DNA of 64,000 bases from Candidatus Omnitrophota bacterium. GTDB taxonomy: Bacteria; Omnitrophota; Gorgyraeia; Zapsychrales; Fredricksoniimonadaceae. The position numbers were made by a program, and so were the translations under genes. The notes below the pieces were generated by a model that was not told the origin of the DNA, made no database searches, and worked only from the letters and a program-made list of their open reading frames with translations. Location of the stretch: NCBI GenBank assembly GCA_013285735.1, contig JABDGZ010000004.1, positions 999-64,998 of the forward strand. The letters run 5' to 3'. Within the stretch, counting starts at the first letter, position 1. The number at the start of each line of letters is the position of its first letter. Shown here in pieces: positions 13,959 to 60,092 of the stretch.

Positions 13959-13964
13959 AATATT

Positions 13965-14458: not shown

Positions 14459-17023
14459 TTACTTTATTATTCCTAACAGCGCCGGGACATTCTGAGTTGT
14501 TACAGGTTTAATACTGCGGATGATTGAGGTTAATCCATTCAAATTCATCATGGCACGGTCCTGATATTGAGCCGCAAGAGGCATGCCCATACCATCAACC
14601 TTGATATTCATCGTCAAATTTTCATCGCTCAAGTTGATACCACCAAGATCTGCCTCATGATGAGCCACAGCCGTCGCAGCCCTGTCCCTAGGGCTTGAAA
14701 AAGCATCTGTGGCAGCCAATATCAAATCATTTAAATCACGAATTCTTTTTTCAAGATCTCTAATCTTATACTTTGACTCCTTCCAAGCAATCGCCGTATT
14801 GACATCTTCTAATGCTTTTTCAACATTCTTTTGATCTTGACGAATATCACTAGCACTCCTTGCGCTACTAAAGAACGCTCCTAAATTCTTCACGAAATTC
14901 ATATTCTTTGATTCACTTTCAAGCGCCTCTTGTCTTCTTTTTAATGACATCCTCTCTAACTCTAAATTTTTCTCAATATCAAGATTTCTTATGTTTGCTT
15001 TATAGCCTGCTTTATAATTATTCTTGAACATTTGTCTTCCGGTAGCATCTATTTTTACCTCCATTCTTCTATTCAGTTCTTTCTGAGCATCTAAATCCCT
15101 TTCTGCATCTAGTAGACTTGCATTCAACATATCAACCGCCCCCGTTGTAGCCGCAGCTGATGGTGGGGTAGGAGTTGAAGTAGGCGCAGCTGGAGGCGCA
15201 TCGGGAATCTTAGCTAATAATTCATCCACTTCGCTCTGAAAATGAAGGATTGATATTCCAAGCTGATCAATCTCTTCGTGAGCTATAACCTCTAGTGTTT
15301 GTAAAACCCTTTCACTCGCCTCAATCTGCCTGTTGCTCTCGTCTAGCAGGGTTTCAATATTTGCTAAATTCTTTTTCATCTGCTTTCGAGTCTTTACTCT
15401 TATAAAAAGCCCGGTTAATTCATCAAAATTAAAAGGAAAACCTTGACCCCATAACGAGATACCCATCGCATCAACATAAGATCTTCTTTCGTCTTCATCC
15501 GCTTTTCTTTTAGCTTTCAAATAATCAATTCTTTTAGCTTGGTCCTTTATCCTCTCTAACCTATCGTTTACTTTATAAATACCCACCTGAAAATCACTGA
15601 TTCGACCGGTAAGATTTTGAAATTGGCCTTTCAAAATACCATCCATATCATGACCCTGCGCTTCTCCCAGCCTTTCCTTCGCAGCTTTAAATGTTTCTTG
15701 GGCCTTTAAAAATTTTATGTCTACAGACTCGCCCGTGCCTTCCCGAGCTTCTGCCACTGCCGCGACATCAACCTTACCTGCTGCAGCAACTGCCCTCCCG
15801 CCCAAAACCTGCGCATCGGTAAGGTGAGCAAAGGCCGTATGACTGGCAAAAACCGTCAATAAAACAGTCGCTAATGCAAATCTATGCATATTATTTCTCA
15901 TATTTCCCAAAAAAACAGCCACTCTTGCCTTGAAAGGACTTGTATTAATCTGCTCTTCAACCACCTGTTTCATCCCACCTGAAAAATATTTCCTTGGTAT
16001 TGTTTGGCCATCGGGAATGGCATCTTCTTTAATATAATTGAACACACCTTTCTTGTACGCCCTTAAATATTGCTTATATATTTTTTCCATCGCTTGCGGG
16101 TCGCTAAGCTTCTGCCCCGCGATCCGGGACCTATTGGCGAAAACTTGCCCTAAAAGACTTTGTTTAAGTGTCTTTTTAAACCATGTTGCCATGATCTCAG
16201 CGTTATACACTTGACGGACCGCAGCAAAACTCTTGCCCTCATTAACTTCCTTTTCAATAGCAGGAATAATAATTTCACGGACAATTGCTAAAGCCATCTG
16301 GGTCTTGGCATCTTTACTGGTATCCGGGATAGTTGAAATATTACCGAATTGTTCTTTATTTTTATCAATGGCCATATAATCCTGCTCAAGCATGACCTTC
16401 AGATGACTGTCTACCAAAAATGCTGTGTCACCTTTTTGATAAATATCCGCTTTATCAGCAACGATCCATACTTTGTTAAAAGTATTAACGCTGATATTGG
16501 TAGTGCCAAAACGGGCTTGGGCCTGTTGGTAAACCTCACTCCAAAACTTCTTGCCTAATCCGCTTTCCGGATAAATTAAAGATGCTGTGAATTGTTTGAG
16601 GATATAATCTTGAGCCAAAAGATCACGGCCCATTTCAGTTTGTCCAAAAACTTTAGGAATGATACGCTTGGACTCATAAGGAGAAAGATTCACCCACATA
16701 TCCGAATTCGGCATGGTAAGTGCAACCAAAAAATATTTAATAATTTTATTAAATTCTTCTTTTTCAACGCTATCCGACATAGGGGTTTCGCCACGATCCA
16801 TAATGAAGTCAAAATTAAACGGATCTTTGAGATTGATCTTAAGCCCTACCATCTGTGGTGGTTCAAAATGACGGGTAATATGAATCATCTGGCCCGGAGC
16901 TGGCATGACAATGCTCACCTGAGCATAACTGGGCTGGGCTGGAAGCAAACCAATGAATGCGACCAAAACGACAGAGACAATAAAACGAAATAATGAGGTC
17001 TTTTTAAATGTAATAGTACTCAT
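14459..17023 (-). CDS. large protein of unknown function, 854 aa. It has a signal peptide, a roughly 370-aa N-domain paralogous to the 49263..52474 protein, an internal signal-peptide-like hydrophobic segment, a coiled-coil-rich region and the shared C-terminal module.
   Basis: N-terminus MSTITFKKTSLFRFIVSVVLVAFIGLLPAQPSYAQ. The N-domain aligns with the other paralog (VNLSPYE..RIIP..FG.TEMGRDLLA.DY.LKQ.TASLIYPE; IPRKYFSGG). The C-terminus GGINLSDENLTMNIKV...IIRSIKPVTTQNVPALLGIIK matches the family module. Confidence 0.7.
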   Translation of the reverse strand: MSTITFKKTSLFRFIVSVVLVAFIGLLPAQPSYAQVSIVMPAPGQMIHITRHFEPPQMVGLKINLKDPFNFDFIMDRGETPMSDSVEKEEFNKIIKYFLVALTMPNSDMWVNLSPYESKRIIPKVFGQTEMGRDLLAQDYILKQFTASLIYPESGLGKKFWSEVYQQAQARFGTTNISVNTFNKVWIVADKADIYQKGDTAFLVDSHLKVMLEQDYMAIDKNKEQFGNISTIPDTSKDAKTQMALAIVREIIIPAIEKEVNEGKSFAAVRQVYNAEIMATWFKKTLKQSLLGQVFANRSRIAGQKLSDPQAMEKIYKQYLRAYKKGVFNYIKEDAIPDGQTIPRKYFSGGMKQVVEEQINTSPFKARVAVFLGNMRNNMHRFALATVLLTVFASHTAFAHLTDAQVLGGRAVAAAGKVDVAAVAEAREGTGESVDIKFLKAQETFKAAKERLGEAQGHDMDGILKGQFQNLTGRISDFQVGIYKVNDRLERIKDQAKRIDYLKAKRKADEDERRSYVDAMGISLWGQGFPFNFDELTGLFIRVKTRKQMKKNLANIETLLDESNRQIEASERVLQTLEVIAHEEIDQLGISILHFQSEVDELLAKIPDAPPAAPTSTPTPPSAAATTGAVDMLNASLLDAERDLDAQKELNRRMEVKIDATGRQMFKNNYKAGYKANIRNLDIEKNLELERMSLKRRQEALESESKNMNFVKNLGAFFSSARSASDIRQDQKNVEKALEDVNTAIAWKESKYKIRDLEKRIRDLNDLILAATDAFSSPRDRAATAVAHHEADLGGINLSDENLTMNIKVDGMGMPLAAQYQDRAMMNLNGLTSIIRSIKPVTTQNVPALLGIIK

Positions 17024-19135: not shown

Positions 19136-19181
19136 AAGTCCATTATAAAATGTTGAGGAACAATTGCAATAAGGGTGGTAG

Positions 19182-19613
19182 TTATTTTGCAGAAGATCGA
19201 ATCATGAGAATGGGGATGTCGGTGTGGTGACGCAATTTGTCTGCTACCGACCCTAAAATCATATCTTCTATAAACTGATGCCCATGGGTGGCCATGGCAA
19301 TAAGATCACATCCTTCATCTTGAGCAACGGCTAAAATACCGTCTACAGGCTCTTTACCTTGCACTAAAATCGCTTGAACCTTAAAACCGTCCTTTTTCAA
19401 GCTGGCACCTACTTGGTCTAAATATGCTTGATCATTTTTAATTTCTTCAGAATCAGCCAAATTTAGCTGGTCTTGCAACTGTGCGGCAAAACCATCTGCC
19501 ACATGAACCAGGACCAACTTGGCATGAGTCAATGTGGCCAGTTTACGGATATGCAGCAGGATCGTTTCATCCGTCGCTGAATTATCCAAAGGGATGATTA
19601 TTTTTTTATACAC
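19182..19613 (-). CDS. universal stress protein UspA family
   Basis: 143 aa with C-terminal DLIAMATHGH...GSVADKLRHHTDIPILMIR (ATP-binding Usp motif). Confidence 0.8.
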   Translation of the reverse strand: MYKKIIIPLDNSATDETILLHIRKLATLTHAKLVLVHVADGFAAQLQDQLNLADSEEIKNDQAYLDQVGASLKKDGFKVQAILVQGKEPVDGILAVAQDEGCDLIAMATHGHQFIEDMILGSVADKLRHHTDIPILMIRSSAK

Positions 19614-44948: not shown

Positions 44949-46715
44949 ATGACAACAAAGGAACAGGGAATCTTGACTAAAGAATCTGCAAAAATACTCA
45001 CTAAAAAAACTATCAACGGAGCGGAAGCTCTGATCAAGTGTTTGGAGAACTTTGGTGTCGAATACATCTGGGGCTTATCCGGCGGTGCCGCTATCCCTAT
45101 TTTCGATGCCTTGGTCGGCTCCAAGATCAAACTCATTTTGACCCGCCACGAACAAGGTGCCACCCACATGGCTGATGGCTATGCCCGCGTGACCGGCAAA
45201 CCTGGTGTGGTATTAGTGACCTCAGGCCCAGGTGCCACCAATACCGTCACTGGTATTCTAACTGCCATGATGGATTCAGTACCCATGATTGTGCTCACGG
45301 GTCAGACCATCACCTCGATGTTAGGTAAAGACGCTTTTCAGGAAGCTGACATTTCGGGTATCACCATGCCTGTGGTCAAGCACAGCTACTTGGTCAAAAA
45401 TACCAACGATATCCCTCGTATTATTAAAGAAGCCTGGCATATTACCCAGACCGGCCGGCCTGGTCCTGTACTGATTGATTTACCTAAAGATATTACCTCT
45501 GCCCCTTTTAGCGGAGAGAGCCTTGATCCGGAGATGGATATTCCGGGTTATAAAAAAGACACTCCCTCACCCCATAAAGCAGATATTGTCAAAATGGCCA
45601 AGCTTTTTAAAGGCAGTAAAAAGCCATTGCTGCTGGTGGGACATGGCGCCGTGCTTTCCTGTGCAGGTGCCGCGATTAAAAAATTAGCCGAAAAATTAGG
45701 CGCCCCTGTGACCAACACCCTTTTGGGCAAAGGTGAATTTCCTGAAACCCATCCCCTGTCTTTAGGCATGTTGGGAATGCACGGCACCGCTTATGCCAAT
45801 AAAGCTTTGGTCAACTGCGATTTGATCCTTTCTATCGGCTCACGCTGGGATGACCGCATTAACGGCAACAATAATGAATTTTGCGTAGGCGCTAAAAAAC
45901 TTCATATCGATGTGGATTTTTCAGAGATCAATAAGATCGTCAAACCTGATGCTTGGGTCTTGGGTAATGCCAAGGAAGTGGTGGAAGCATTAGTCAAGCT
46001 AGTACAACCCCTGGATACCAAGGAATGGCTTAAAGAATTGGAATATTATAAAACACAATTTCCACTCAAATATAGCAAAACCAATGGTTTGACCGCCCAA
46101 CAGGTTATTGATACCTGTTATAAAGTCACCAAAGGTAAAGCTATTGTCAGCACTGACGTGGGCCAGCATCAAATGTGGGCGGCCCAGTTCTATCTTTCTG
46201 ACAAAGGCAATTACTGGTTATCTTCAGGTGGCGCCGGGACCATGGGTTATGGTTTCCCCGCAGCTATTGGGGCTCAATTTGCCGCTCCCAAGGACTTGGT
46301 CGTTGCCATAGTGGGCGACGGTGGATTTCAGATGACTGCCTATGAATTATCGACGATTTTTATTCATAAATTGCCGGTTAAAATCCTGATCATTGATAAT
46401 AAATATTTAGGTATGGTGCGCCAATGGCAGGAATTATTCTTCGATAATCGTCTCTCTGGTGTGGATTTAGAAGGAAATCCTGATTTCGTGAAATTAGCTG
46501 AAGCCTATAGTATCAAGGGTTTTCATATGGATAAACCTGAGAATTGCGAAAAGGTGATGAAAGAGGCCATGGCTTATAAAGGCCCTTGCCTGATCCACGC
46601 AGAAGTTATCAAGGAAGATAATGTGTTTCCTATGATACCTGCTGGTAAATCAGCCTTTCATATGATCATAGAAAAACCTACTACAAAAATGGAAAAACCG
46701 TCAGGATCGACATAA
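44949..46715 (+). CDS. ilvB: acetolactate synthase large subunit
   Basis: 588 aa with TPP and FAD domains (GGAAIPIFDAL, GDGGFQM). Followed by the small subunit. Confidence 0.9.
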   Translation: MTTKEQGILTKESAKILTKKTINGAEALIKCLENFGVEYIWGLSGGAAIPIFDALVGSKIKLILTRHEQGATHMADGYARVTGKPGVVLVTSGPGATNTVTGILTAMMDSVPMIVLTGQTITSMLGKDAFQEADISGITMPVVKHSYLVKNTNDIPRIIKEAWHITQTGRPGPVLIDLPKDITSAPFSGESLDPEMDIPGYKKDTPSPHKADIVKMAKLFKGSKKPLLLVGHGAVLSCAGAAIKKLAEKLGAPVTNTLLGKGEFPETHPLSLGMLGMHGTAYANKALVNCDLILSIGSRWDDRINGNNNEFCVGAKKLHIDVDFSEINKIVKPDAWVLGNAKEVVEALVKLVQPLDTKEWLKELEYYKTQFPLKYSKTNGLTAQQVIDTCYKVTKGKAIVSTDVGQHQMWAAQFYLSDKGNYWLSSGGAGTMGYGFPAAIGAQFAAPKDLVVAIVGDGGFQMTAYELSTIFIHKLPVKILIIDNKYLGMVRQWQELFFDNRLSGVDLEGNPDFVKLAEAYSIKGFHMDKPENCEKVMKEAMAYKGPCLIHAEVIKEDNVFPMIPAGKSAFHMIIEKPTTKMEKPSGST

Positions 46716-46716
46716 T

Positions 46717-47211
46717 ATGGATAAACTTCCTTTACATACAATCAGTGTTTTAGTGGCTAATAAACCAGGCGTGCTGGTGCGCATTGCATTAGTATTCGCC
46801 CGTCGCGGCTATAATATTAATTCGCTGGTGGTCTCACCCACCATCAATCCTAAATATTCACGCATGACCATCACCGCCAAAGGTGATCTGGAAACATTGG
46901 AACAGATCATTAAAAACGTCAATAAACTCATTGATGTCATTCATTGCGAAGAACATCCTGCTAACACGGTAGAAAAAGAATTAGCCCTGCTTAAAACCAA
47001 GGCTTCCCCTGCAGTCAAAGCGTTTGTCACCAAGAACGCCCATAAATTCCACGTCCGTATCGATGACGCCTCTGAAGGCTGCTATATCATCGAACAGACC
47101 GGCACCACCCTTGAACTCGACGAGTTCGAGAGCTTAATCAAAAAATACGGCGTCCTGGAAATGGTACGCACCGGAAAAGTGCTTATTACCCGCGGACGGG
47201 AAGAGACTTAA
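46717..47211 (+). CDS. ilvN: acetolactate synthase small (regulatory, ACT-domain) subunit
   Basis: 164 aa with an ACT-domain N-terminus (ISVLVANKPGVLVRIALVFARRGYNI). Confidence 0.85.
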   Translation: MDKLPLHTISVLVANKPGVLVRIALVFARRGYNINSLVVSPTINPKYSRMTITAKGDLETLEQIIKNVNKLIDVIHCEEHPANTVEKELALLKTKASPAVKAFVTKNAHKFHVRIDDASEGCYIIEQTGTTLELDEFESLIKKYGVLEMVRTGKVLITRGREET

Positions 47212-49211
47212 ACTGCAGTTGTTATCCCAAGAAATCCCTTAAGATCTGTCATCGGCTTTATACTAATAATCACCGGCACAAAGCCCGGGGCGTTTCGAAG
47301 TTGTGCAAGCATAGCGGGATCAATGTGGAATTTGATTTCGCCGCCGTTATTCTGCGTCTGCAAATGCATGTTGGCAGGGGTTAAGTCGATACCACCTGTG
47401 CTTGATTCCTCCATTTGATGCATAGGTATAGTAGTATGCATCGCTGTATCAAATTTTAACAACACAAACTTCTCATCCTCAATACTGTTATATTGATCCT
47501 CCCCAAACATAGCTGTAAATTTCCCCCAAGAATCCATATGTTGAGGATGAACTTTGACCTTTGTACCATTAACATAAACTGGAAGCTTTTTGACAGTCTT
47601 GTCATTGTCAAAATTAAAAGCTCCATCTAAATCCCGAGGTAAAACCACCCCCTCCAATCCTAAGTTTCCTGCTAACTCATTTAACCCTTTAAGAAGATTT
47701 GTCAACAATTCCTCTCCATCTAAAGAAGCAGATTGAATCGTATCTACTACTAATACTTTTTTACCATCCTTTGTCTCTCCTTTCATCAAACCAACATAGC
47801 CCTTTAATTCTTTACCCTTATAAACAAAATAATACATCGTATCTTCGTGCATGGCCCTGGTAAATGCATACCCCTTATCCCTATCCATATCAAAAGAACA
47901 ATCCATAATTCCAGCTCTCCCTCTGAATACACCCAAAAATCCTTGTGGAACCAGCGAATAACCCTCCCCACCTTTGACCTTGATCACTTTGACTTTAGCT
48001 ATCTCCTCATATACATCGGCTGATAATTGTTCGAAACTCTCCGTAAGACCTTTAATGCTCTCTACCTTTACCCCTATGGCAGCCATCGGAAGATGTCTTT
48101 TGTAATCTTCGTAAAAACTCTTAAACGCTTCAATTTTTTCATCTATCTGTTCTGACTGAAGCTGTCGCACCAACCCTTCGTCTAACAAACTTTCAGCAAT
48201 GATTAAATTTCTCATTAAGACCAAACATCTTTCTGAATGCTCTCCTATGTATTTATCATAGGTTATTTTAAAAACCGTATTGTAGAATTCTTTCTTTTTT
48301 GATAATAATTCCTCTCTCATTACCATTTCTGATGGAAATGGAATACTAAATCTGTCCTTATCCGTAATAATTCCTTCGCGAATAGCTTCGTTTCTTTTAA
48401 AATTCCAATAAATATTACTTAATTTTAATTTTTTATCCCCTTCAAAATTCTCTAATAACCAATTAAAGCTATCTACCTCTGCCTGAATGCCCAACAATTT
48501 ATAAAGATGAGCATCAAACACCTCCCCATCGACATCCTCGACGACTTTATTTTCATACTCTGTAGCGCTAACGTTTAATACTCCCAAGCCTTTGGTTTTA
48601 TTAAAAAGCATTTGCCAGTATCCGGGATTCTTTTTATCAAATTTAATTAACTCACCTATCCTTTCTTCAAATTCATCCCTTGTCAAAACTATCCCGCTAC
48701 TCCTGACAGCCACGTATGCAAACCATAATTTCTTGGGATCATTATAATCAAAACCATTCTCTATTACTTGATGTGCTTCTCTTTTTATTTGTTCAACAAA
48801 TCTAACAGGATCACTACTATCCCAAAAAGACTCAAAAATTTCTTCTTCATATGGAAAATTTTCTTTAATCCATAAAGAATATCTCATAAAACCCTCTGGC
48901 GAGAAATTCTTTTCCTCGATCATTCTGGGATATACAAAACTCAAAACATTAAGAATTGCATGCCTTGCATCTGTACCCCACTCTGAATTTAAACGCTTTT
49001 CTAGATCTTCTGATGTTAAATATCCCTGCTCGACCATTTTTAAATACAGGGGACCCAAAGCATCAACGATTTCATCTCTAACGGAACTATACTCTCTAGT
49101 ATCAAGGAGTTTTTCTAAGACTTCTATAGGCACCCTCTCTCCTCGCTCTGCCCTCCATAGGTATAACTTGCTAAGAGCTTTGATGATTGCTTTCTGTGAA
49201 TCAGAATACAT
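47208..49211 (-). CDS. large protein of unknown function, 667 aa. It has no signal peptide and carries the shared C-terminal module.
   Basis: C-terminus STGGIDLTPANMHLQTQNNGGEIKFHIDPAMLAQLRNAPGFVPVIISIKPMTDLKGFLGITTAV. The coding sequence is AT-rich. Confidence 0.7.
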   Translation of the reverse strand: MYSDSQKAIIKALSKLYLWRAERGERVPIEVLEKLLDTREYSSVRDEIVDALGPLYLKMVEQGYLTSEDLEKRLNSEWGTDARHAILNVLSFVYPRMIEEKNFSPEGFMRYSLWIKENFPYEEEIFESFWDSSDPVRFVEQIKREAHQVIENGFDYNDPKKLWFAYVAVRSSGIVLTRDEFEERIGELIKFDKKNPGYWQMLFNKTKGLGVLNVSATEYENKVVEDVDGEVFDAHLYKLLGIQAEVDSFNWLLENFEGDKKLKLSNIYWNFKRNEAIREGIITDKDRFSIPFPSEMVMREELLSKKKEFYNTVFKITYDKYIGEHSERCLVLMRNLIIAESLLDEGLVRQLQSEQIDEKIEAFKSFYEDYKRHLPMAAIGVKVESIKGLTESFEQLSADVYEEIAKVKVIKVKGGEGYSLVPQGFLGVFRGRAGIMDCSFDMDRDKGYAFTRAMHEDTMYYFVYKGKELKGYVGLMKGETKDGKKVLVVDTIQSASLDGEELLTNLLKGLNELAGNLGLEGVVLPRDLDGAFNFDNDKTVKKLPVYVNGTKVKVHPQHMDSWGKFTAMFGEDQYNSIEDEKFVLLKFDTAMHTTIPMHQMEESSTGGIDLTPANMHLQTQNNGGEIKFHIDPAMLAQLRNAPGFVPVIISIKPMTDLKGFLGITTAV

Positions 49212-49262
49212 GTATCCGTCAGATAAATACAGGTATAGGTAATCATTGGAATGATATAAAAT

Positions 49263-52200
49263 TTAATTATTGTGGAACTGTTGAGGAGATTTAGATGTCA
49301 ATCCCAAAAATATCCTAATGTTTCTCATTGGCTGAATATTAATAATAACTGGTATAAAACCATGGGCATTTTGTAATTGTTTAAGCAAGACAAGATTAAG
49401 ATGAAATTTAATTTCACCATTACTATATTGAATTTGAAGATTCATATTCTCAGGAGTTAAGTCAATACCACCATAATTTGGATTGTTTAATTGTGCAACA
49501 TAATTATTACCAACGTTTTGAGGTCGCTGTGACCATAAACTTAATTCTCTAATCATAGGTGGGGTTAAAGAATAATCCCACCTTCTGTCGTTCACACGAT
49601 CACGAACATCCACGCTTAAATATGTGAACTGCTCAACCTTAACTTGATTTTCATCAAGCAAATGGATAGTCTGTCTCAAAGTTGATTCTGCCCATTGGGG
49701 GGTAGCCCCATAAGGACCGCTGGATGGAATTCCAGCTTCTGGAAACACCCAAGGCTTACTAACATAGGTTTTTGATACGCGCTTAATATAATCAAATGTT
49801 TCATCTTTGTTTAAAGGAGTTAAATATAAATCAAAACCAAATGCATCAAAACTATTTAAATTCGGGCGATAGTTTTCTCCGTACTTATTCATCTGAGTGT
49901 AAACAATTCTAAAGTTTAAACCATTTTCTTGGCCCAAACGTCTTAAATATGCAGATGTATCCTCAAATCTTTTCTTATAGGCATTATATGCCACTTCAGT
50001 CCATCTCTTTCCATTAGGAGTTCCATCCTCAGTGCCATAAGACATATTATCTGGCTCCGATGCTACTCGGATATAAATAGTGTCATTTTTATCAAAACCT
50101 GCGTCTTTAAATTTTTGCACCATAAAATCAATTTCTTTTTGATCAATCGTTTCCAAGCCTATAAATGGTGCGACTCCCATACCTCTTAAACGGTTCAATT
50201 CATTAACATTCCAAACAGCAAAATTTGAAGCCCCGGTGCTTGAAGGAACATCATGATTCCAATAATACATAAGAGCTTGATGAGAAAAAACTCCTTTTTG
50301 CCTTCCATATGCAATGGTCTTAAAATATTGATCAACTGTAAAATTAGGAAGATAATCGGAGTACGCCCCAACCGGTTTATCAATCTTATTTTCTGGTTGA
50401 GGAGCAAAAGATACTGTTTCGGTACCTTCTTTACTATCAACTTGAAAAAACGAAACGCTCGGTGGTTTATTTTCAAATGTTGGAGCTACCTTATTATGTG
50501 CATATGCTTGAGGCATCATGAAAAGTGCACTAACCCCCAATGTTAAAGCTATGGCGGTTGCCAATGTTCTTTTAGGAGTGAATAATCTTTGTACCAAGGA
50601 TTGTACGAAAGGAACAGATGGGTTTCTTCTAGAAGGTTTTGAGGGGACCTTAATGGGAGACGCGGTACTCGTTTTAACAGCCATTGTAGGTTCAACCGCT
50701 ACAACCGGACTACTTGGTACTTGTATATTACTGCTAAGTGCAAAGATATTTTGAACTTCCTGAATTGTTTCCAACCTACCCGTATATGCCGCTGATATCA
50801 ATCTAATCTTTATTCCTAACGGAAGGCCTCCGGTCTTTTCATCCTTTTTTAAATCATCATCACTAATCCCAAGGCTATCCTGAATACCCTTGATCGTTTG
50901 ATCAAACATTTCTTCCTTCTGAGAAACCATTACTCCATTCCTGTTAACTTTTTTTGCTAAAGATACGTACAATGCTGCTGTTAATATTCTTTGTTTCTGT
51001 ACATAATCTAAATTTTGAATATTAATACCAAATCTATTTTCTACATCGCTGATAAACCTTCCCCAAGCTGCATATGTCGTCTCACCCGATATTTTGTCAA
51101 CAACAGTTAAAAGTTGTCTTTTAGCTGTAGGCCTAAGATTTTCAAAATCGATCCCATATTTAGTAGAAAAATCTCTTAGAATTTTTCCCATAACTCTTAT
51201 ACGCTCATCAGTCACCCTATCATTATGAACTTTTGAAGCAATGATGTTACCAACTTTTGCTTTTAATTTCCTATTCTTATTCCCTTTCAAAATTTCTGCT
51301 AAAGAATTTTCAACATCAGCTCTTTCAGTCTGCTCTGTGATCAACATTGCCCTATCTGGTGAAAGCATCGCCCCATCAGCACCATGCGAATCTGAAGTAA
51401 CTTCAAAATTAGGAATCTCTAAATTAGAATCCCCTTTTTGAAATAATGCCAAAAACGCTCCTCCTGAGAAATATTTCCTTGGTATAGTCTCTTGCGTTAC
51501 AGGATCAACATCTTCTTTGATGTAGTTATACACACCCTTCTTAAAAGCCTTAAGATATCGCTGATAAATTTCTTCTTTCTCCTGTGGGTTATCAATATTG
51601 ACTCCAGCGACCTTGTTCTTATCCGCGTATACCTGTGATAATATGCTTTCTTTGATTTTTTTCTTATACCATGTAGCTAAAATGAGCGAACTATATACCT
51701 GACGTAGTTGGGCGAAATTCTTATCTTCATTAACTTCTTTTTTTAATTCAGGAATAATTATCTCGCGTACGATCTGGCTGCCTAATTGGTTAGTATCTTT
51801 TGCTTGTGTCTGCCGAGATTGGATTCCTTCATGTTTGGTCAATGACAGATAATCTTGCTCTAACATTACTTTTAGTTTTGATTCGACTACATAAGCCGTG
51901 CCTGCTTTTGTATTCTCATAAACTACCGCTTTTTCAGGTACTATCCAAACCTTGTTAAAGGTATTCACCGGAACATTGGTTGTCCCAAATTTTTTAGCGG
52001 CTTCTTCGTAGATTCGCTTCCAGAATTTCTTTCCAATCGTATCTTCAGGGTAAATCAAGCTGGCTGTTATTTGCTTGAGCATATAATCTTCGGCCAACAG
52101 GTCTCGCCCCATCTCAGTAAGCCCAAAGCTATTAGGAATAATACGATCCTTTTCATACGGGGAAAGATTGACCCAAAGGTCTTTCTCAGGGATGGTCAAA

Positions 52201-52474
52201 GAGGCAAGGAAATATTTAATCAGTTTGCTAGATTCATCTTTAAGCTGGCCATTGCTTAATTCACCATCTCCTTTATCTAGAATAAAGTCAAATCTAAACG
52301 GGTTATCAGGATGAACCTTGATTCCTTTAAGAATCGGTGGATCAAATGGAGGACTTAAATGAACCATGACCCCAGGCGTAGGCAAATAATAATCTTGGGC
52401 TTGGGCTAAGGGCATGGGGCCAAAGGAATTAATCAAGAAGGCTACAAGAATAAGGATTAATAGGGATTTTCTCA
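49263..52474 (-). CDS. large protein of unknown function, about 1070 aa. It has a signal peptide, an N-domain paralogous to the 854-aa protein, an internal signal-peptide-like segment, a possible TIM-barrel hydrolase-like region and the shared C-terminal module.
   Basis: I chose the start at Met 52474 (MRKSLLILILVAFLINSFGPMPLAQAQ, a Sec signal). The ORF track starts 13 codons upstream. The C-terminus is YGGIDLTPENMNLQIQYSNGEIKFHLNLVLLKQLQNAHGFIPVIINIQPMRNIRIFLGL. Confidence 0.7.
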
Positions 52475-52667
52475 TCTTAATATAAATATACCATGCATTT
52501 GATAGTAAAAACAAGGGTTGGTGGGAAACTGGCTGGGAATGATACCATAGATCGTTACCCCCCTGCTTGTGAGAAAGTTGAGAAGATCTTATGTGTGAGC
52601 GAAAAAGTCTTTAAGAAGATTCAAAGGGATTTTGAGAGATTTGGTATCAAGGTGGGAAACTGGCCTT

Positions 52668-54224
52668 TTAGGCTTTTTGCCATCTGTCAGGAAGAAGTTC
52701 CTCTAGTCGTGAGATTGGATGGGACTGAATTCTTTGTAAAACGTCTTTCAAATAAGTCCACGTATTGATCTTATTTTTGCGGCAAGTGGCGGTAAAGGTC
52801 ATGAGTATCGCAGCTGTATGACCACCTTTTTCACTTCCAACAAAAAGCCAATTTTTGCGTCCTAAGGCTATTGGACGTATGGCATTTTCAGCAAGATTAT
52901 TGTCTATCGGTAATCGGCCATCTTGAAGATAAGCATTAAGTTCTTTCCAAAGGCCAAGCGTGTAATTAATGGCCAGACGCATGGGTGATTGTGGTAAATG
53001 TCCGGGAAGATGTTCTTCAAGTTTATTTTTAATTTTATCTAATAACACCCTAGATTCTTTTAACCGGAGAGCATGCCTATCTTTTGGGCTTAAGAATTTA
53101 GCATCAGATTCAACATGATACAATTTGGCGATTAGCACCAGTACTTCAGTTGCTGCGCGTGGTGATGTTTTTTCAGCGTCTAGAAAATACCGCCTTGCAT
53201 GCGCCCAACAGGCTAAATGGGTTACGATGTGAGCGGTGGTTTCCTCTGTGGTAGGAGGTTTTCCTAATCCGCTATAGCCAGCATAGGCATCGGACATAAA
53301 AAATCCTTTGTAATCTTTAAAGAATTCCAATGGACCTTCTTTACAGCGGTTTATTGTAAAATTGTACAGTGCATATTTGAAGTTTTCAGCTCCAACTGTT
53401 GCCCACATCCTTGCTGTCTGTATCCCTTTGTTCGGGCCATCTCGCATGTCCACCGGGGTGTCATCATTGCCTACAATGCCGTGTTCAAAGATTTTATTGC
53501 GCTTTAGATCATATAAAGGGGTAAGTGCTAAGGCGCATCCATACATCCAATCAGCCATGGTTTGGCGGCTGATATTTACACCTTCTCGTTTAAGTTTCTC
53601 TTCAATCCTGTACAAAGGGGTATGATATTCAAACTTCTCCGTGATCACATAGGCTAAAAGACCAGCATCTGCTTCACAGCGTTCAATAGGGCCTTCCGGT
53701 GTGGGATGCTGTTTAACACCACAGCCATCACAGCGACTATCCCCACAAGCATACTTGGGTCTCACATAGCTATTGACCAACAGGGATGAGGGGTGGTAAT
53801 CAAGGCGTTCGGTTATATCATCGCCGATATGAACAAGCTTCTTGCCGCAGCCACAGACTTTTTTCTCTTCATGGACATCTAAAACATGTTCAACACGCTT
53901 AAGATGCTCTGGTAATTTCTGACGGCCATGATGATTACGCACATGTGCTGTTACCGCCGTTGTTGTCTCAAGCAGGGGATCTTCTGCCTTTGGGGCAGTA
54001 TTCTTGTCTACTTCTAGGATAAGTTCTTGCATAAGCAGTTGATTGGGGTCAAGTTTTTCACTGCTTCGGCCATACAGACGTTTTATCAAGCCTTCTAATT
54101 GGTGCTGCTGTTTAAGGATTGTATTTTGGAGGGTTTCTACAAGTGCTTCGAGTTGTTGGTTTTGTTCTTTTAGGTATGTATTTTCTTCAGCAGGAGTTGA
54201 GAAAGTAAGCGTCGTCGATACCAT
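52668..54224 (-). CDS. tnpC: IS66 family transposase TnpC
   Basis: N-terminal leucine zipper, then a zinc-finger region CGCGKKLVHIGDDITERLDYHPSSLLVNSYVRPKYAC, and a DDE core. Confidence 0.85.
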   Translation of the reverse strand: MVSTTLTFSTPAEENTYLKEQNQQLEALVETLQNTILKQQHQLEGLIKRLYGRSSEKLDPNQLLMQELILEVDKNTAPKAEDPLLETTTAVTAHVRNHHGRQKLPEHLKRVEHVLDVHEEKKVCGCGKKLVHIGDDITERLDYHPSSLLVNSYVRPKYACGDSRCDGCGVKQHPTPEGPIERCEADAGLLAYVITEKFEYHTPLYRIEEKLKREGVNISRQTMADWMYGCALALTPLYDLKRNKIFEHGIVGNDDTPVDMRDGPNKGIQTARMWATVGAENFKYALYNFTINRCKEGPLEFFKDYKGFFMSDAYAGYSGLGKPPTTEETTAHIVTHLACWAHARRYFLDAEKTSPRAATEVLVLIAKLYHVESDAKFLSPKDRHALRLKESRVLLDKIKNKLEEHLPGHLPQSPMRLAINYTLGLWKELNAYLQDGRLPIDNNLAENAIRPIALGRKNWLFVGSEKGGHTAAILMTFTATCRKNKINTWTYLKDVLQRIQSHPISRLEELLPDRWQKA

Positions 54225-54277
54225 TAGATTTATATTAGCACTTATCGTCGGTGAATCAAGATATTTATTAGATATTT

Positions 54278-54637
54278 TTACATCATTTTAACATTATCAC
54301 GTCGGTATCGTGGTTGACGTTTGATCACTCTTGCTTCAATTCCTTCAAGTAAATTTGCCCATGATGCACGGTCAAGACAGCTACCATCATCAGAAGGGAT
54401 CACAAACCTACCTGCTTCAAGCCGTTTATACCACAACGCATAACCATCGTTATCCCAATAGAGAACTTTTAACTTGGTTTTATTTACATTTAGAAAAACA
54501 AACCAATCGCCATTTAAGGGGTCTTCATGCATTTCATCGGTCACCATCAATGACAAACGATCAAAACTTCTGCGCAAATCACAGCTGCCGCGATATAAAA
54601 ATATCCTGACATTGTTCAAATTAATTCCTGAGATCAT
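54278..54637 (-). CDS. tnpB: IS66 Orf2 accessory protein TnpB
   Basis: 119 aa with [23 protein letters not shown], the characteristic IS66 Orf2. Confidence 0.85.
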
Positions 54638-54936
54638 ATGGCTTTGACCAACCCAAGGATCTTTTGGAAAATCAATTCATCAAAACCATTGAGCTCGATC
54701 TTGTACCCATTGGGGGTTTCAATATGAAGATCCTTCAGGGTGGGGAATGAAGGTTTGATTAACCGAAGGAATCCTGGCTTGGGAGATTCATTACTGATTA
54801 ATCTTTTACGCCATGCATAAAAATTGCTTATGTTGATATTTTTATTCTTGCAGTATTGGGATATTGATAAACCGCTGGTAGGTTGGGCAAAAAGTATTTT
54901 TTGCCATTGCTTCTTTGATCGAAAAATTTTCTTCAT
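54634..54936 (-). CDS. tnpA: IS66 Orf1 (TnpA-like helix-turn-helix protein)
   Basis: 100 aa with a 4-bp overlap with orf2 and an AGGAGG RBS. Confidence 0.7.
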
Positions 54937-55026
54937 CGACGTTCCTCCTATGAATTGTTATAATAATGCAATATTTTACCGCACTATTAAAATGATTCAT
55001 AGATGGATTAGTCGGACGGATACATT

Positions 55027-58000
55027 TTGAGTGGAAATGAGAATTCAGAAAATAAATCTTCACGTTTACAATTCGTTGACATAGTGAATCCGACCCTTGT
55101 TACCCAAATATATCATGAGGCAAATAAAATAATTGGAAATGCCGCTAAATGGACTATTGCAAAACACAAGTTTTCTGAGTTCGATCCAAGAATATTAGAA
55201 GAATTAATGAAGCCAGAAAATGATATTTTGGAGAATATTTCTTCAACAGAGGTCCGTTTAAAGGCTAATTTAGACTGGAATAAACTTATTAGGATACAAG
55301 AAATTGCGGGAAGTGATTTTGAAAAAATTAGGGACATTTTGCAACAGTCCGAAGTGAGAACTGAATATAAATTTGAAATTAAAGATTTTGCTCCCAAAAC
55401 TCCTGATTATTCATCTTTTGAGGGTAAGACAATTGATAGTTTGAAAGAATTTGATGAATGGGCCCAAGTTTACGCACTTGCTTTTTTACCTGCAGCTTAT
55501 GGTGACCCGCAACTCATTGATAAATCGAGACAGGAAATTTTATCTGTAATTGATAAGGACCCAAGAAAGAGGGATCTTTGGTCAATGGTAAGAAATGGCT
55601 TCAATCAAATGACCTCTATTACTACTAAAGACACTGAGCGGAAATCACATTTGAAAACACATCTTGGCACTATTTTAGACGATAGAAAGGGTATTGAAGA
55701 AAAGCTTGAAGAATTGAATAATACTCGCACATTGCCGGAATTGGATGAAATGATAGCAGCAAATAATGTAATGTCATCGGTAGGGAATGGGGTGGTGACA
55801 AGCGGGGAAATAGGAAAAATTGCAGCGGGATTATTACCGGGATTGGCGTCTGGTTTAGGGGCTATTGATCAACCAATAGAATCTTTCGTTAATGCGGCGA
55901 TGAATGCAAGGGATCAGGCGATGACTGTGGTCGATCAAAGGGATCGATTGGTTCGAAATTTGAGAATCTTGTTAGAAAGGCCGGATGTTCAAATAGGATT
56001 AGGTAATCATGAGGCTGTTCGTTACATGTTAAATGGCGTAGCAAGTGCCGCAACAATAAATCCTGGTCCCGCTGCTGTTATTTCATTAGAAAGTTATATA
56101 AAAAAGATAGAAGATTTACTTATTCCAGTGAAACAAAAAATTGAGCTACTAAAGAAGCTTCACAACGAAAATCCTGAGGTTTTCAATGAAGTTGATCAAA
56201 TGGTGATGCTTGAGAATGAAGGATATTCTCCAAAAAAGAGATCGATTGTAAATAAATTAGATAAGGATGAAAATAGTTTTTTGTTTTCTAAGGTTACTAA
56301 GATTCTTGGAGCACGCATATATTATGTGGATCCAACTGTTAAAATACTTATGGCGCATTATGTTCAGGAAGAAGGTGCTAATAAAAGAATAACTTATCAA
56401 GAGCCAACTGCGCTTTTGTTTTCTACATCATCATCCGTCGCCAAGATACAGGCCCAAGCAGCGACACCGGCAGAATGGATTCAAAGGAATCATATGTATG
56501 TTATTGATGGTAGGGAGAAGTTTACAGATCTTGTGAGGTTTACAGAATATTTACTCAAGGCTTATCGAGCCAATCCACATATTCCAGTTGTAGGCTATTT
56601 AGATAAATGGTGTGTGCTTCCAACTCCTCTCGACTTAGTAAAGGAGCGTTTGATCGGTTCCAATGATGTTGTCCGTGCGCTTTCTGATGAAGCGGTAAGT
56701 CGTTCTAATAATATGCCGGTATCAAGTGACGGCATTTTCGATTTGTATTATTTTGCGTCTAAGCTTCTAGATGAAAGGCAAATAAGAGCAACACCTTTCG
56801 TTACGGGTGAATTTAAAGGCGTTACATTAACTGCAATTCGTGAATCGACAATAGAAAGCATTATCACTGAATATAATAAGGTGGTGGCCCGTCCGACAGA
56901 ACCCTATGCTCCTCAAGGCAGCATTGATGGTCAAGCAGCGACACCAAGAGAATGGATGGAAAGACATAATATTCAAATTTTAGAAGGCAGATCATTAAAC
57001 GGTATTAAAAGTGTTGAAGAATTGGCTATGATTTTAGTTCAGCAATTTCAAACCAGACAAAGGCCTGTTGCGGCTGAATGGGAAGGGACTTGGTTAATGA
57101 CAGATCCTTATTTATTCCTGGAGGCGGCTAATCTTGTTGACGTTGGTCAAAGAATGGTTTATGAATGGAGAGAGCGTAAAGCTCGTGCCACTGTTTTGGA
57201 TAGAGGCATTCCAGATTTGAATAATTTTGCGGCTACGTTATTGGATGAAAGGCAAATACGGGGCGATGTTGTGGTTAAAGGCGAATTTGGAGGGATTACT
57301 TTAGTAGCCAATGGACGCACAACGTTACGCAATATTATTCGTCAATATAATGTGGCGGTAAAAAGCATTCCTTCTGTTGGCCCTTTTGATAGTAGTCGCG
57401 AGGTAAAAAGCTTGGATGCATTGGTTAAACGGCATAATATATTATGGATTAACGGGAATGAAATTTTTAGAAAAAGAGGACGGCTGGGGAAGGCTGCTGA
57501 TATCATAGATTTCGCTTTGGATTTAATTGATTTTCAACGTCTAAATCCAATCCAGCCGCATGGCGGCACATGGAATGGGGTGAGCCTAATTTTAGATCCG
57601 TTTTACTTAATGGGGGTTAGCACAGTCGTTGCTAATAAAATTAAAACTCAATATGATCGTCGTTTTAGTAATGAGGAAGAGCCTAATAGACCTATGGAAA
57701 GCTTGTTAGATTTTGCCATCAGACTTTTAGAGGAGAGGGTAATAAGAAGAGATTCTTTCCCAAATGCAAAGCAATTTGAAGCTATCTATAAAGATCCGTC
57801 CGACCAATCTGATGATAAGGGCACCAGTTTAATAGTAACTCCACAATCAACAGTAAAAAGTATTATAGGTCAGTATAATAGAAAGAACCCGCTAAAGCCT
57901 TATACCCCTAACCATAACGAATTAAGAGTTTTTTATGAAGATAAAATGGGAACTGGCGGGATGGGTTTTATTAGGTTTTTACTTGAGGAATACCGATGGG

Positions 58001-58569
58001 ACCCAAGCAGGCCGGTTATTGGCCTAACGCATGGTAAATGGGTCACCCCAGAGCCTTCTGACTTGGTTGTCGATCCTTATTCCGCTGTTTCTAGAATTTC
58101 TAAGGAATTGGAAGATCGGATAAATAATAATCCTTTAGCAGATGACGGTATTGAAGACGTGAGGGATTATGCAGAGGAACTTCTTCATGAAAGAGATATG
58201 AGACAAACACAACAATCTGTTGATAAAGTTACATTTAAAGGCATACAATTAATAGTATCTCCACAATCAACAATAAATAGTATTGTCGAAGATTACAATC
58301 AACAAACTGCTCAATCTCCATCGGCGACAGATGATCAGGCGATGAAGGTCACTGAGAAAAGGTCTAATGGGCCAGGTGGTATCGATTTAAGCCCTGCTAA
58401 TAATGTTTTACAAACCCGAAATGCTGGCATAGGGATCAAATTTCACTTAGATGCTGCCCAGCTTGCCCAATGGCAAAAAGCCCCAGGTGTGATGATTGAG
58501 GATATTACTATCCAGCCGCTTAAAAGTCTTTCTGTCTTTCTTGGTCTACCTGACAGCCAACCTGTTTAA
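55027..58569 (+). CDS. large protein of unknown function, about 1180 aa, with four tandem repeat modules of about 170 aa and the shared C-terminal module. The 5' end is possibly truncated by the IS66 insertion.
   Basis: It starts at a TTG immediately after an in-frame stop, about 90 bp from the IS66 orf1 start, with no SD sequence. The repeats carry LL(D/E)ER.IR...GEF.G(I/V)TL......I..YN. The C-terminus is GPGGIDLSPANNVLQTRNAGIGIKFHLDAAQLAQWQKAPGVMIEDITIQPLKSLSVFLGL. Confidence 0.65.
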   Translation: MSGNENSENKSSRLQFVDIVNPTLVTQIYHEANKIIGNAAKWTIAKHKFSEFDPRILEELMKPENDILENISSTEVRLKANLDWNKLIRIQEIAGSDFEKIRDILQQSEVRTEYKFEIKDFAPKTPDYSSFEGKTIDSLKEFDEWAQVYALAFLPAAYGDPQLIDKSRQEILSVIDKDPRKRDLWSMVRNGFNQMTSITTKDTERKSHLKTHLGTILDDRKGIEEKLEELNNTRTLPELDEMIAANNVMSSVGNGVVTSGEIGKIAAGLLPGLASGLGAIDQPIESFVNAAMNARDQAMTVVDQRDRLVRNLRILLERPDVQIGLGNHEAVRYMLNGVASAATINPGPAAVISLESYIKKIEDLLIPVKQKIELLKKLHNENPEVFNEVDQMVMLENEGYSPKKRSIVNKLDKDENSFLFSKVTKILGARIYYVDPTVKILMAHYVQEEGANKRITYQEPTALLFSTSSSVAKIQAQAATPAEWIQRNHMYVIDGREKFTDLVRFTEYLLKAYRANPHIPVVGYLDKWCVLPTPLDLVKERLIGSNDVVRALSDEAVSRSNNMPVSSDGIFDLYYFASKLLDERQIRATPFVTGEFKGVTLTAIRESTIESIITEYNKVVARPTEPYAPQGSIDGQAATPREWMERHNIQILEGRSLNGIKSVEELAMILVQQFQTRQRPVAAEWEGTWLMTDPYLFLEAANLVDVGQRMVYEWRERKARATVLDRGIPDLNNFAATLLDERQIRGDVVVKGEFGGITLVANGRTTLRNIIRQYNVAVKSIPSVGPFDSSREVKSLDALVKRHNILWINGNEIFRKRGRLGKAADIIDFALDLIDFQRLNPIQPHGGTWNGVSLILDPFYLMGVSTVVANKIKTQYDRRFSNEEEPNRPMESLLDFAIRLLEERVIRRDSFPNAKQFEAIYKDPSDQSDDKGTSLIVTPQSTVKSIIGQYNRKNPLKPYTPNHNELRVFYEDKMGTGGMGFIRFLLEEYRWDPSRPVIGLTHGKWVTPEPSDLVVDPYSAVSRISKELEDRINNNPLADDGIEDVRDYAEELLHERDMRQTQQSVDKVTFKGIQLIVSPQSTINSIVEDYNQQTAQSPSATDDQAMKVTEKRSNGPGGIDLSPANNVLQTRNAGIGIKFHLDAAQLAQWQKAPGVMIEDITIQPLKSLSVFLGLPDSQPV

Positions 58570-60092
58570 AAGGTGGCCCTATCCAAACTCCTGTACCCAA
58601 CAGCTTCAGCAATATGCTCGGGCAAAATAATATCACTCCCCGACAAGTCACTTATAGTTCTGCTAACCTTGAGTATTTTATCGTGTGCCCTGGCTGAGAA
58701 TTTTAATTCTTCCATGGCCCTGATTAAAATTCCTTTAGCTTCTTTTGATAAAGAACAAAAATTACGTAGGTGTGAACTTTCCATGTGGGCATTGCACAAG
58801 ACGGGCAGGCCTTTAAAGCGTTGCCACTGTATTTGACGCGCCTGCGTGGTGCGTTCTTTGATCGTTGCGGAAGATTCTTCCGACGGAGCATCAACAAGTT
58901 CACGGGTTTTCAAGGGCAGGGCGTGCAGATGGATGTCGATGCGGTCTAGCAGCGGCCCGGAGATTTTATGCCGGTATTTTTCAACTTGAAGATTAGAACA
59001 GCGGCATGTTTTTCCAGGAACATCTTTGTATCCGCAGGGGCAAGGGTTCATGGCCGCGATGAGCATAAACCGGGTTGGAAAACGTAAACTCCCTCGAGAA
59101 CGTGCGATACTGACATAACCGTCTTCCAGGGGCTGGCGTAACACTTCCAGCACATGGCGATTGAATTCCAGGAATTCATCCAGGAACAAAACACCGTTAT
59201 GGGCGAGCGTCACCTCGCCGGGACGAGGTCCGCTGCCGCCACCGATAATAGCCACATCCGACGCTGTATGATGAGGCGCCCTAAAGGGGCGCTGGGTGAT
59301 AATGCCCTCAGCATTTTTTAGCAGGCCTGCGACCGAATGGATTTGGGTGGTTTGCAAGACTTCAGCAGGAGTCATATCTGGCAAGATCGTTGTCAGTCGT
59401 TTAGCTAACATGGTTTTACCGCTGCCAGGCGCACCGATCAAAAGCACATTATGCCCGCCGGCAGCTGCCACCTCGAGGCCCCGTTTAATATATTGCTGGG
59501 CTTTGACTTCGCTAAAGTCAAAATTACTGCGATGAGAATTTTTAAGCAGAACTTCAAAATTTGTCTCAACAGCACTGAGTATTTTGGAATCCATCAAAAA
59601 TGCCACAACCTCGTTGAGATGTTTGGCTGGAAAAACAGGACAGCCCGCCAGCGCTGCTTCTTTGGCGTTTTCAAAAGGAACAATAAGCCCCTGGCAATTG
59701 CTGCTGGCCGCGGCCAGGGCAACAGATAAAGCGCCCTGCACAGGTTGTATACGTCCATCTAAAGAAAGTTCACCTATAAAAGCGTAAGGATTTAAAGTCT
59801 CCGGGGGTATCAGGCCTTGGGCTGCCAGGACGCCCAGGGCAATGGCCAAATCATAACAGGGCCCTTGTTTTTTAGTATCGGCGGGTGCCAAATTGATGGT
59901 AATCCTTTGGGCGGGGAATTCAAAACCGCTATTTTTGATGGCCGCGCGAATGCGTTCACGGCTTTCTTTAACGGCATTATCAGGCAAGCCAACCACGGTT
60001 ATAGTGGGCAGCCCAGGACTTATATCTGTTTCAATACCAACAGGATAGGCTTCCAAGCCGCAAAGGCCAAACGAGGCAATTCGAGCTAACAT
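58566..60092 (-). CDS. yifB: YifB/ComM family Mg-chelatase-like AAA+ ATPase
   Basis: 508 aa with an N-terminal Lon-like domain and Walker A GAPGSGKTMLAKR. Confidence 0.85.
   Translation of the reverse strand: MLARIASFGLCGLEAYPVGIETDISPGLPTITVVGLPDNAVKESRERIRAAIKNSGFEFPAQRITINLAPADTKKQGPCYDLAIALGVLAAQGLIPPETLNPYAFIGELSLDGRIQPVQGALSVALAAASSNCQGLIVPFENAKEAALAGCPVFPAKHLNEVVAFLMDSKILSAVETNFEVLLKNSHRSNFDFSEVKAQQYIKRGLEVAAAGGHNVLLIGAPGSGKTMLAKRLTTILPDMTPAEVLQTTQIHSVAGLLKNAEGIITQRPFRAPHHTASDVAIIGGGSGPRPGEVTLAHNGVLFLDEFLEFNRHVLEVLRQPLEDGYVSIARSRGSLRFPTRFMLIAAMNPCPCGYKDVPGKTCRCSNLQVEKYRHKISGPLLDRIDIHLHALPLKTRELVDAPSEESSATIKERTTQARQIQWQRFKGLPVLCNAHMESSHLRNFCSLSKEAKGILIRAMEELKFSARAHDKILKVSRTISDLSGSDIILPEHIAEAVGYRSLDRATF

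Follow-up and report, generated by a model that had tools for sequence, protein, structure and literature searches.

A 64,000-nucleotide stretch of a Candidatus Omnitrophota genome (assembly GCA_013285735.1, contig JABDGZ010000004.1; hereafter the window) contains four large open reading frames (ORFs), A667, B1083, C1180 and D854, whose products end in related versions of the same short block, here called the module. An earlier note, made from the letters of this DNA, had placed three very large ORFs between ilvBN and yifB, and the ORF listing and the Pfam matches of the flanking genes agree with this: A667, B1083 and C1180 lie between ilvB/ilvN (44949-47211; TPP_enzyme, ACT_AHAS_ss/ALS_ss_C) and a yifB/comM-type Mg-chelatase gene (58566-60092). 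The greater AT-richness of this island is also correct, the three ORFs having a GC content of 0.37-0.39 and a GC content at third codon positions (GC3) of 0.29-0.34, against 0.45-0.49 and about 0.47 in the flanking housekeeping genes. The insertion sequence IS66 that the note saw flanked by module ORFs sits between B1083 and C1180; its three ORFs include TnpB_IS66 (Pfam E 2e-29) and the DDE_Tnp_IS66 transposase (E 5e-83), and zf-IS66, LZ_Tnp_IS66 and IS66_C are also present. D854 lies outside the island among housekeeping genes, namely trpA, a pyridoxal phosphate enzyme (putative trpB), an M20 peptidase, an inositol monophosphatase and FIST.

The block at the four ORF ends reads GGIDLxPxN..LQ...IKFH.D...L.QLQNAPGFVPVIINIQP...L..FLG, with three strong copies and one divergent copy (D854). 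The 57 residues that run from GGIDL to FLG can be aligned in A667, B1083 and C1180 with no gap (pairwise BLASTP E values of 1e-11 to 3e-20), and the terminal block reported earlier on all three island ORFs is real at that length. A profile hidden Markov model (HMM) built from 98 copies of other genomes only scored A667 at 111, B1083 at 90 and C1180 at 69 bits, and these scores are still significant against a library of 1.8 billion proteins. On the protein at 14459-17023, where the note had also seen the block, it is present as a divergent version: the D854 C-terminus reached 19.6 bits (E 4e-5) with the same outside-copy HMM against the six-frame translation of the window, and E 0.003 by BLASTP. 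No fifth copy was found in the window by this six-frame search. The module in the four window proteins matched nothing in Pfam or NCBIfam at E<=1, scans of these proteins with PADLOC and PHROGs returned nothing relevant, and searches of the PDB by sequence with the three island proteins and a family profile found nothing. The two outcomes that the note had named against itself, a match to a known Pfam domain and a loss of significance in the four-way similarity, did not occur. Its placing of the module outside the classical sorting signals likewise agrees with the Pfam and NCBIfam searches at E<=1: nothing of the type IX secretion system (T9SS) C-terminal domain (CTD) type (TIGR04183 / PF18962) matched in the four proteins, and signals of the LPXTG, PEP-CTERM, GlyGly-CTERM and MYXO-CTERM type gave no NCBIfam match, with no transmembrane segment in the window modules by hydropathy. 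The statement that the proteins belong to no recognisable family is right for curated libraries and wrong beyond them, since each end falls into a very large family that has not been curated.

In 246 indel-free copies the consensus reads GGIDLTPANMNLQTQNAGGEIKFHLDPAMLQQLQNAPGFVPVIINIQPMTDLRQFLG, and 26 of its 57 positions are conserved at >=85%. Among the window copies, identical residues share a codon in only 42-62% of cases, nucleotide identity is 0.58-0.67 and synonymous sites are unconserved, so that it is the protein sequence and not the DNA that is constrained. This bears on the possibility that the block has no function as protein and that its DNA is a homology arm for the shuffling of cassettes, as in orphan Rhs or contact-dependent inhibition (CDI) modules. 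Tandem members, copies without the N-terminal region ("headless" copies) close to full-length genes, internal module remnants in the fused proteins P0093 and P0094, and integrase and IS elements nearby would suit such a handle, but its conservation is at the amino-acid level and copies within a genome are no more alike than copies between genomes. A recombination handle is largely refuted by the synonymous-site divergence, and we give it hardly any credence. The remnants themselves (P0093, aa 619-640; P0094, aa 20-30) are partial, internal or N-terminal, and are consistent with past fusion of tandem family genes.

When 1.84 billion cluster representatives were searched exhaustively with a HMMER profile of the module, 5,256 proteins matched at E<=1e-3 and 1,879 at E<=1e-10; in 136 of the listed top matches, the distance from the module envelope to the protein end had a median of 1 residue and a maximum of 19. 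A scan of one genome per GTDB species gave 158 confirmed copies. The locus set used below comprises 78 kept loci from 28 species-representative assemblies, with 90 module ORFs of up to 3,413 aa (median near 1,200), and the module ends 0-21 residues before the C-terminus in all 90. The source assemblies are almost all labelled Candidatus Omnitrophota, and one of them holds as many as 13 loci. Bins of third-party annotation (TPA) records labelled "uncultured Planctomycetales" that carry the module probably represent the same lineage under another label, and a scan of viral contigs for the module found no relatives. The HMM search of related genomes that the earlier note had proposed as a check has hence found the module to be strictly C-terminal, lineage-restricted and numerous, and as far as sampled the family is confined to the phylum Omnitrophota.

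The tail occurs in subtypes. That of D854, GGINLSDE...GMPL...LNGLTSIIRSIKP...LLG, is also found in the metagenome proteins P0089 and P0091. A third subtype, GGVDLNQININRMGK...FDPAQLNEL...PLLG, ends a protein with the N-terminal domain described below (locus L068, ORF 13552-17244); it escaped the module HMM, and the family counts are therefore lower bounds. Some copies have in-frame inserts, for example VMDSRFRGND(..)G, between LQTK and GIKFH (L059:8747-8983; L052:10001-10213), and copies with an insert in this loop also occur in P0040, P0048, P0050, P0072, P0073 and P0075. The VMDSRFRGND peptide resembles what would be read from a short palindromic repeat element that is widespread in uncultured bacteria, and if it has that origin, this loop tolerates insertion.

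The D854 protein had been described as unrelated to the island proteins, which is wrong: the first approximately 350 residues of B1083 and D854 are 53% identical (BLASTP E 1e-118), and both proteins have a Sec-type signal peptide. The shared N-terminal domain (N-domain) is approximately 310-340 aa long, and a search with the corresponding region of B1083 gives 1,429 relatives at E<=1e-5. The named relatives are Omnitrophota or Omnitrophica, except for one with a Minisyncoccia label and one unclassified hydrothermal-vent metagenome record. No Pfam domain covers the region among these relatives, and no fold in the PDB matched it. When the 90 module ORFs of the GTDB locus set are sorted by the N-domain, 60 encode it themselves and 4 are immediately preceded by an ORF that encodes it; a contig edge cuts 19, and only 7 are complete without it, two of these being fragments of 93 and 154 aa. 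Carriers with both ends make up 64 of the 71 assessable cases (about 90%) in these species-representative genomes, and many of the "leaderless" module proteins in metagenomes are probably 5'-truncated gene calls. A hydrophobic Sec-type leader was found by hydropathy in 95 of 98 non-redundant complete two-ended proteins.

Head (N-domain) and tail (module) vary together. Among 100 complete members (4,950 pairs), the 4,898 pairs without BLAST similarity between N-domain and module gave a Spearman correlation of 0.82 between N-domain identity and module identity, a value reached by none of 500 label permutations. The correlation was 0.74 within genomes and 0.70 between genomes, and within-genome copies were no more alike than between-genome copies, which rules out simple concerted evolution. 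The co-variation points to matched head-tail pairs, which could reflect direct contact, a common partner or the inheritance of a frame with an exchanged centre. The idea that the module is an independent tag on unrelated proteins does not survive these results, given that leader and N-domain are shared by 64 of 71 carriers and that the two ends co-vary.

No secretion apparatus adjoins the family genes in the window, and none recurs in the 78 related loci by neighbour clustering, which leaves the proposal that the module marks the substrates of an undescribed export system unsupported. A role in secretion or localisation is still plausible. Among the neighbours, just an integrase-like ORF recurs (11 of 78 loci), and the sole neighbour of the ATP-binding cassette (ABC) type is a generic ATPase (7 of 78), with no recurrent pair of ABC and membrane fusion protein (MFP) genes. 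Substrates of the type I secretion system (T1SS) with repeats-in-toxin (RTX) sequences were considered and rejected, as there is no HemolysinCabind match, no such ABC/MFP pair and a Sec-type leader in 95 of 98 proteins.

One way to keep the substance of that proposal is to regard the module by itself as a secretion signal, read by an undescribed Sec-independent or outer-membrane machine, so that every carrier would be a substrate; T9SS CTDs, the XVIPCD of the Xanthomonas T4SS and T1SS signals would be its analogues. The strictly terminal position of the module, its thousands of diverse carriers, its lack of a match to any known sorting-signal model and the existence of headless and leaderless carriers, A667 and C1180 among them, are in its favour, and these headless carriers leave it some probability. 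Against it stand the N-domain and Sec-type leader of about 90% of the assessable carriers and the absence of apparatus genes from the window and the 78 loci; head and tail also co-vary, many seemingly headless metagenome proteins are contig-edge fragments, and the module alone is not predicted to fold. T1SS signals and those of the type IV secretion system (T4SS) are usually far less conserved in sequence than this module, and its conservation (26 of 57 positions) is above what is usual for them. With a Sec-type leader on 95 of 98 complete two-ended proteins, most of the family is unlikely to use a C-terminal signal that works without Sec, as in T1SS or T4SS, and we regard an autonomous signal of any kind as unlikely.

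Between the two ends lies a cargo region of approximately 10 to more than 2,000 aa that is unrelated between members. Pfam domains in the cargos include HATPase_c, Pkinase, Zeta_toxin, methyltransferases, GNAT and Bac_transf (bacterial sugar transferase), further HAD, HEAT, PPDK_N/glucan-water-dikinase modules, starch synthase GT5/GT1 and M48 peptidase, and also DndE, CoaE and receiver domains (Response_reg). The cargos of the four window proteins had no Pfam match, and a PDB sequence search with the island proteins was empty. In about 13 of 100 members, including D854 (aa 383-401; 15821-15877), the N-domain is followed after 15-130 aa by a signal-peptide-like segment; the ORF at 14966-20146 of locus L009 is another example. 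These internal segments resemble Sec or Tat signals, one of them with a twin arginine, and the segment at aa 650-668 of B1083 is similar. The presence of internal Sec- and Tat-like signals suggests that whole genes for secreted proteins have been captured between head and tail.

An internal transmembrane-like segment was found by hydropathy in 18 of 98 complete members. Such a segment could mean that the N-domain is a periplasmic sensor, that the internal helix spans the membrane, and that cargo and tail are cytoplasmic, the tail serving for oligomerisation or regulation. B1083, with a leader and one clear internal hydrophobic segment, and D854, with a leader and a weaker, sub-threshold one, could be drawn in this way; HATPase_c, Response_reg and Pkinase occur among the cargos, and such a topology would make all four window tails cytoplasmic. 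However, the segment is present in only those 18 of 98 members, and at laxer thresholds its rate is no higher than in ordinary ORFs of the window. The internal segments are signal-peptide-like, one of them twin-arginine, with the charges on the wrong side for an out-to-in helix, and the cargos are far too heterogeneous for one signalling family. We therefore consider a transmembrane receptor very improbable.

The junctions between cargo and ends carry motifs of their own. RKYFSGG closes the N-domain, in many cases with x-D-[LFM] after it, and the module opens with an invariant GG followed by I-D-L. In 106 of 220 proteins the motif D-x-A-[MQ] is found in the 30 residues that precede the module, whereas the background rate is 4.8% in equivalent 30-residue stretches from other parts of these proteins; the motif is seen again just past the N-domain. 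Comparison of the post-N-domain segment with the module by hhalign gave only a 5-residue GGxDL match, and a duplicated module was not found. These motifs might be processing sites, or they might be structural caps. In a more far-reaching reading, head and tail would be the two halves of a split carrier into which captured genes are inserted; the carrier would export arbitrary enzymes of the cytoplasmic type and bring them into host or prey cells, and the invariant GG and the D-x-A-M motifs at both junctions would be its release sites. We consider this unlikely; if true, it would be a phylum-specific delivery route without a known homologue.

Structure prediction with AlphaFold2 (AF2) gave different results for the module alone and for the module with its head. 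Alone, it was modelled with a predicted local distance difference test (pLDDT) score of 66, a predicted template modelling (pTM) score of 0.24 and two short helices only. P0317 is a minimal natural member, consisting of signal peptide, N-domain, a 16-aa linker and module. Its AF2 model, from a paired alignment of 49 sequences, had a pTM of 0.72, a pLDDT of 80-95 in the N-domain core and a pLDDT of 60-89 in the module, where strands were predicted at 368-370 and 378-382 and a helix at 393-400. The model is compatible with a tail that packs on the head.

The explanation that we favour, with moderate confidence, is that the block is the C-terminal end-piece of a multi-copy family of polymorphic exported effector or display proteins, in which head and tail form one frame. 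It builds on the architecture, the strict C-terminal position, the Sec-type leaders, the conservation at the protein level and the head-tail co-variation observed here. A typical member has a cleavable Sec-type signal peptide, an N-domain ending in RKYFSGG, a central cargo, and the 57-aa module a few residues before the stop. Head and tail would act together, either by packing against each other or by binding the same partner. After Sec export, the envelope or a host or prey cell would be the place where the frame targets, docks or presents its cargo, and the repertoire would diversify by capture and swapping of cargo between the conserved ends. Cargos that depend on ATP, S-adenosylmethionine (SAM), acetyl-CoA or nucleotide sugars are found on these exported proteins, and this would fit, circumstantially, with action inside another cell. 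Such action would agree with the predatory or parasitic lifestyle that has been proposed for Omnitrophota (PMC10066038; 10.1101/2023.11.21.568195).

Several points weigh against this explanation. The functions of head, tail and frame are putative, and so is a contact between head and tail. The co-variation could come from common descent of a frame with swapped centres, without physical interaction. The tail can stand without the head, as complete genes that lack the N-domain show (A667, C1180 and 7 in other genomes). Enzymes with cytoplasmic cofactors fit delivery into another cell but are equally odd for simple surface display. In about 18% of members, B1083 among them, an internal hydrophobic segment could hold cargo and tail in the cytoplasm; the segment of D854 is weaker and below the threshold used. 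In addition, no partner or apparatus gene turned up in the window or the 78 loci.

Protein families with comparable layouts are known in other bacteria. Like the T9SS cargos of Bacteroidota, the family combines a signal peptide, a variable region and a conserved, strictly terminal domain, is restricted to one phylum and has many cargos per genome. Unlike the T9SS CTD, the module is only 57 aa long, and AF2 shows no seven-strand beta-sandwich, although the models are too poor to exclude one firmly. T9SS cargos also lack a shared N-terminal domain that co-varies with the CTD, and no T9SS genes were seen here. MARTX toxins and the polymorphic toxin systems Rhs and CdiA (in the classification of Zhang et al. 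2012) have conserved trafficking parts with exchangeable enzyme or toxin domains, are multi-copy and island-borne and leave orphan cassettes, and in MARTX both ends are conserved with the effectors in the middle. The four window proteins have no homology in Pfam or NCBIfam to RTX repeats, the cysteine protease domain (CPD), Rhs, two-partner secretion (TPS) or PT-domains. As in polymorphic toxins, a conserved leader and N-domain are joined to unrelated cargos including Zeta_toxin, kinases and GNAT. In most polymorphic toxins, however, the variable toxin is at the extreme C-terminus, with a cognate immunity gene, whereas here the variable part is central and the extreme C-terminus is the conserved module. 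The XVIPCD of Xanthomonas T4SS effectors is similarly a C-terminal recognition element common to unrelated enzymes and toxins, but those effectors have no Sec leader and bind VirD4, whereas most members here have leaders and no T4SS genes were seen nearby; no sequence similarity to XVIPCD was found in the libraries searched.

Dockerin-bearing cellulosomal enzymes resemble the family in that many different Sec-exported enzymes carry a conserved module of about 60-70 aa at one end. The tail could then be an anchor that, after Sec export, docks onto a surface scaffold such as an S-layer, a sheath or a giant Omnitrophota surface protein, the N-domain having a separate role. Such an anchor would be expected to be short, terminal, highly conserved and present on many exported enzymes, as the module is, and the lack of a confident fold for the module alone would be expected if it is a peptide that folds on binding; giant dockerin-type proteins have also been reported in Omnitrophota (10.1101/2023.11.21.568195). 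In contrast to dockerins, the module is coupled to a conserved N-terminal domain, and an anchor does not by itself explain this tight co-variation or the headless, leaderless members. The module shows no similarity to dockerin or to any other Pfam model, and no cohesin-like partner is known or was identified. Dockerin type I (PF00404) in particular had no Pfam match, and the consensus of the 246 copies lacks the duplicated Ca-binding motif D-x-N/D-x-D-G. We consider a dockerin-like anchor decidedly unlikely.

The literature searched on Omnitrophota, including Seymour 2023, West-Roberts 2023 and a 2026 complete-genome preprint, does not describe the module or the N-domain. Conserved trafficking parts around exchangeable cargo follow a known logic; as both conserved parts are absent from Pfam and NCBIfam, they could enter these libraries as new families, and there is a modest chance that they belong to a new delivery system. 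Omnitrophota are uncultured nanobacteria with a presumed predatory or parasitic way of life; little is known of their weapons, and attention has so far been on giant genes. With thousands of members, many copies per genome, an exported head, a co-evolving tail and enzyme- or toxin-like middles, this family is an obvious candidate for an effector repertoire. The N-domain and tail HMMs are handles by which candidate effectors can be enumerated in any Omnitrophota genome, and they can also be used to seek the machinery that recognises these proteins.

We read the headless genes A667 and C1180 as, most probably, orphaned cassettes or cassettes in decay, although they may also have an independent function. 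Headless members close to full-length ones also occur in the loci L029, L046 and L066, and 12 of the 78 loci have at least two members. Tandem members and integrase-like neighbours indicate that family genes lie in mobile or variable regions, like the island of the window. Synteny of the island was sought through yifB, whose best relatives are only 56% identical, and none of them has family genes nearby. The ATG of A667 lies 51 nt past the TAA stop of B1083, in the same frame and with no other stop between (49211-49265), an arrangement that chance could produce, and C1180 starts 90 nt from the IS66 genes. The identical 11-mer GACGGATACAT stands directly upstream of both headless starts (49210-49220, minus strand; 55015-55025, plus strand), and the approximately 60 nt upstream of A667 and C1180 are loosely similar. 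The 11-mer has two exact matches in the 64 kb; together with a third site with one mismatch, this compares with 0.65 matches expected, and as many were found in 3 of 100 shuffles. It does not recur in other family loci, and its single match elsewhere is in an unrelated yifB locus.

The features of the window are collected in Table 1. NCBI and JGI annotate A667 as a protein of 641 aa, from a later start, and its last approximately 200 aa resemble the region before the module in P0094 and P0122; about 130 residues ahead of its module are shared with other members. The true start of B1083 is likely the ATG at 52475, which gives 1070 aa, rather than the TTG that gives 1083 aa. The cleavage contexts of the signal peptides are PLAQA/QD in B1083 and PSYA/QV in D854. 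The residues that follow the module in the four proteins are ITTAV, LTSKSPQQFHNN, LPDSQPV and IIK.

Table 1. Members of the family, their parts and the IS66-family element in the window (positions count from the first letter of the window).
Feature	Position	Strand	Score or basis
ORF A667, headless member, 667 aa	47208..49211	-	no leader, no N-domain
A667 C-terminal module, aa 606-662, GGIDLTPANMHLQ...FLG, then 5-aa tail	47226..47396	-	111 bits
D-x-A-M motif DTAM, 18 aa upstream of the A667 module	47439..47450	-	
ORF B1083, complete member (signal peptide, N-domain, cargo, module)	49263..52514	-	
B1083 Sec-type signal peptide, MRKSLLILILVAFLINSFGPMPLAQA/QD	52398..52475	-	sequence reading and hydropathy
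B1083 N-domain, aa 44-352, LPTPGVMVHLSPP...IPRKYFSGG	51459..52385	-	658 bits
B1083 cargo, internal signal-peptide-like hydrophobic segment, aa 650-668	50511..50567	-	
B1083 C-terminal module, aa 1015-1071	49302..49472	-	90 bits
IS66-family element genes (100-aa ORF, TnpB_IS66, DDE_Tnp_IS66 transposase)	52668..54936	-	Pfam
ORF C1180, headless member (cargo and module), 1180 aa	55027..58569	+	no signal peptide, no N-domain
D-x-A-M motif DQAM, 14 aa upstream of the C1180 module	58333..58344	+	
C1180 C-terminal module, aa 1117-1173	58375..58545	+	69 bits
ORF D854, complete member outside the island	14459..17023	-	
D854 N-domain, aa 40-350, behind signal peptide aa 1-34	15974..16906	-	457 bits
D854 divergent module, aa 794-851, GGINLSDENL...GMPL...NGLTSIIRSIKP...LLG	14471..14644	-	19.6 bits, E 4e-5

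Other features of the window stand apart from the family. A simple inverted-repeat scan around the IS66 genes located no terminal inverted repeats, and no target duplication was identified. A 14-nt direct repeat, GGTGGGAAACTGGC, occurs at 52519-52532 and 52652-52665, in the 150-nt gap between the start of B1083 and the IS66 transposase gene. A 602-aa protein with an Rce1-like CPBP intramembrane protease domain, a type of enzyme that processes protein C-termini in other systems, is encoded at 31622-33430 (minus strand). A 622-aa ORF with a TTG start and no Pfam match lies at 4847-6715 (plus strand), between a radical-SAM/BATS gene and thiC.

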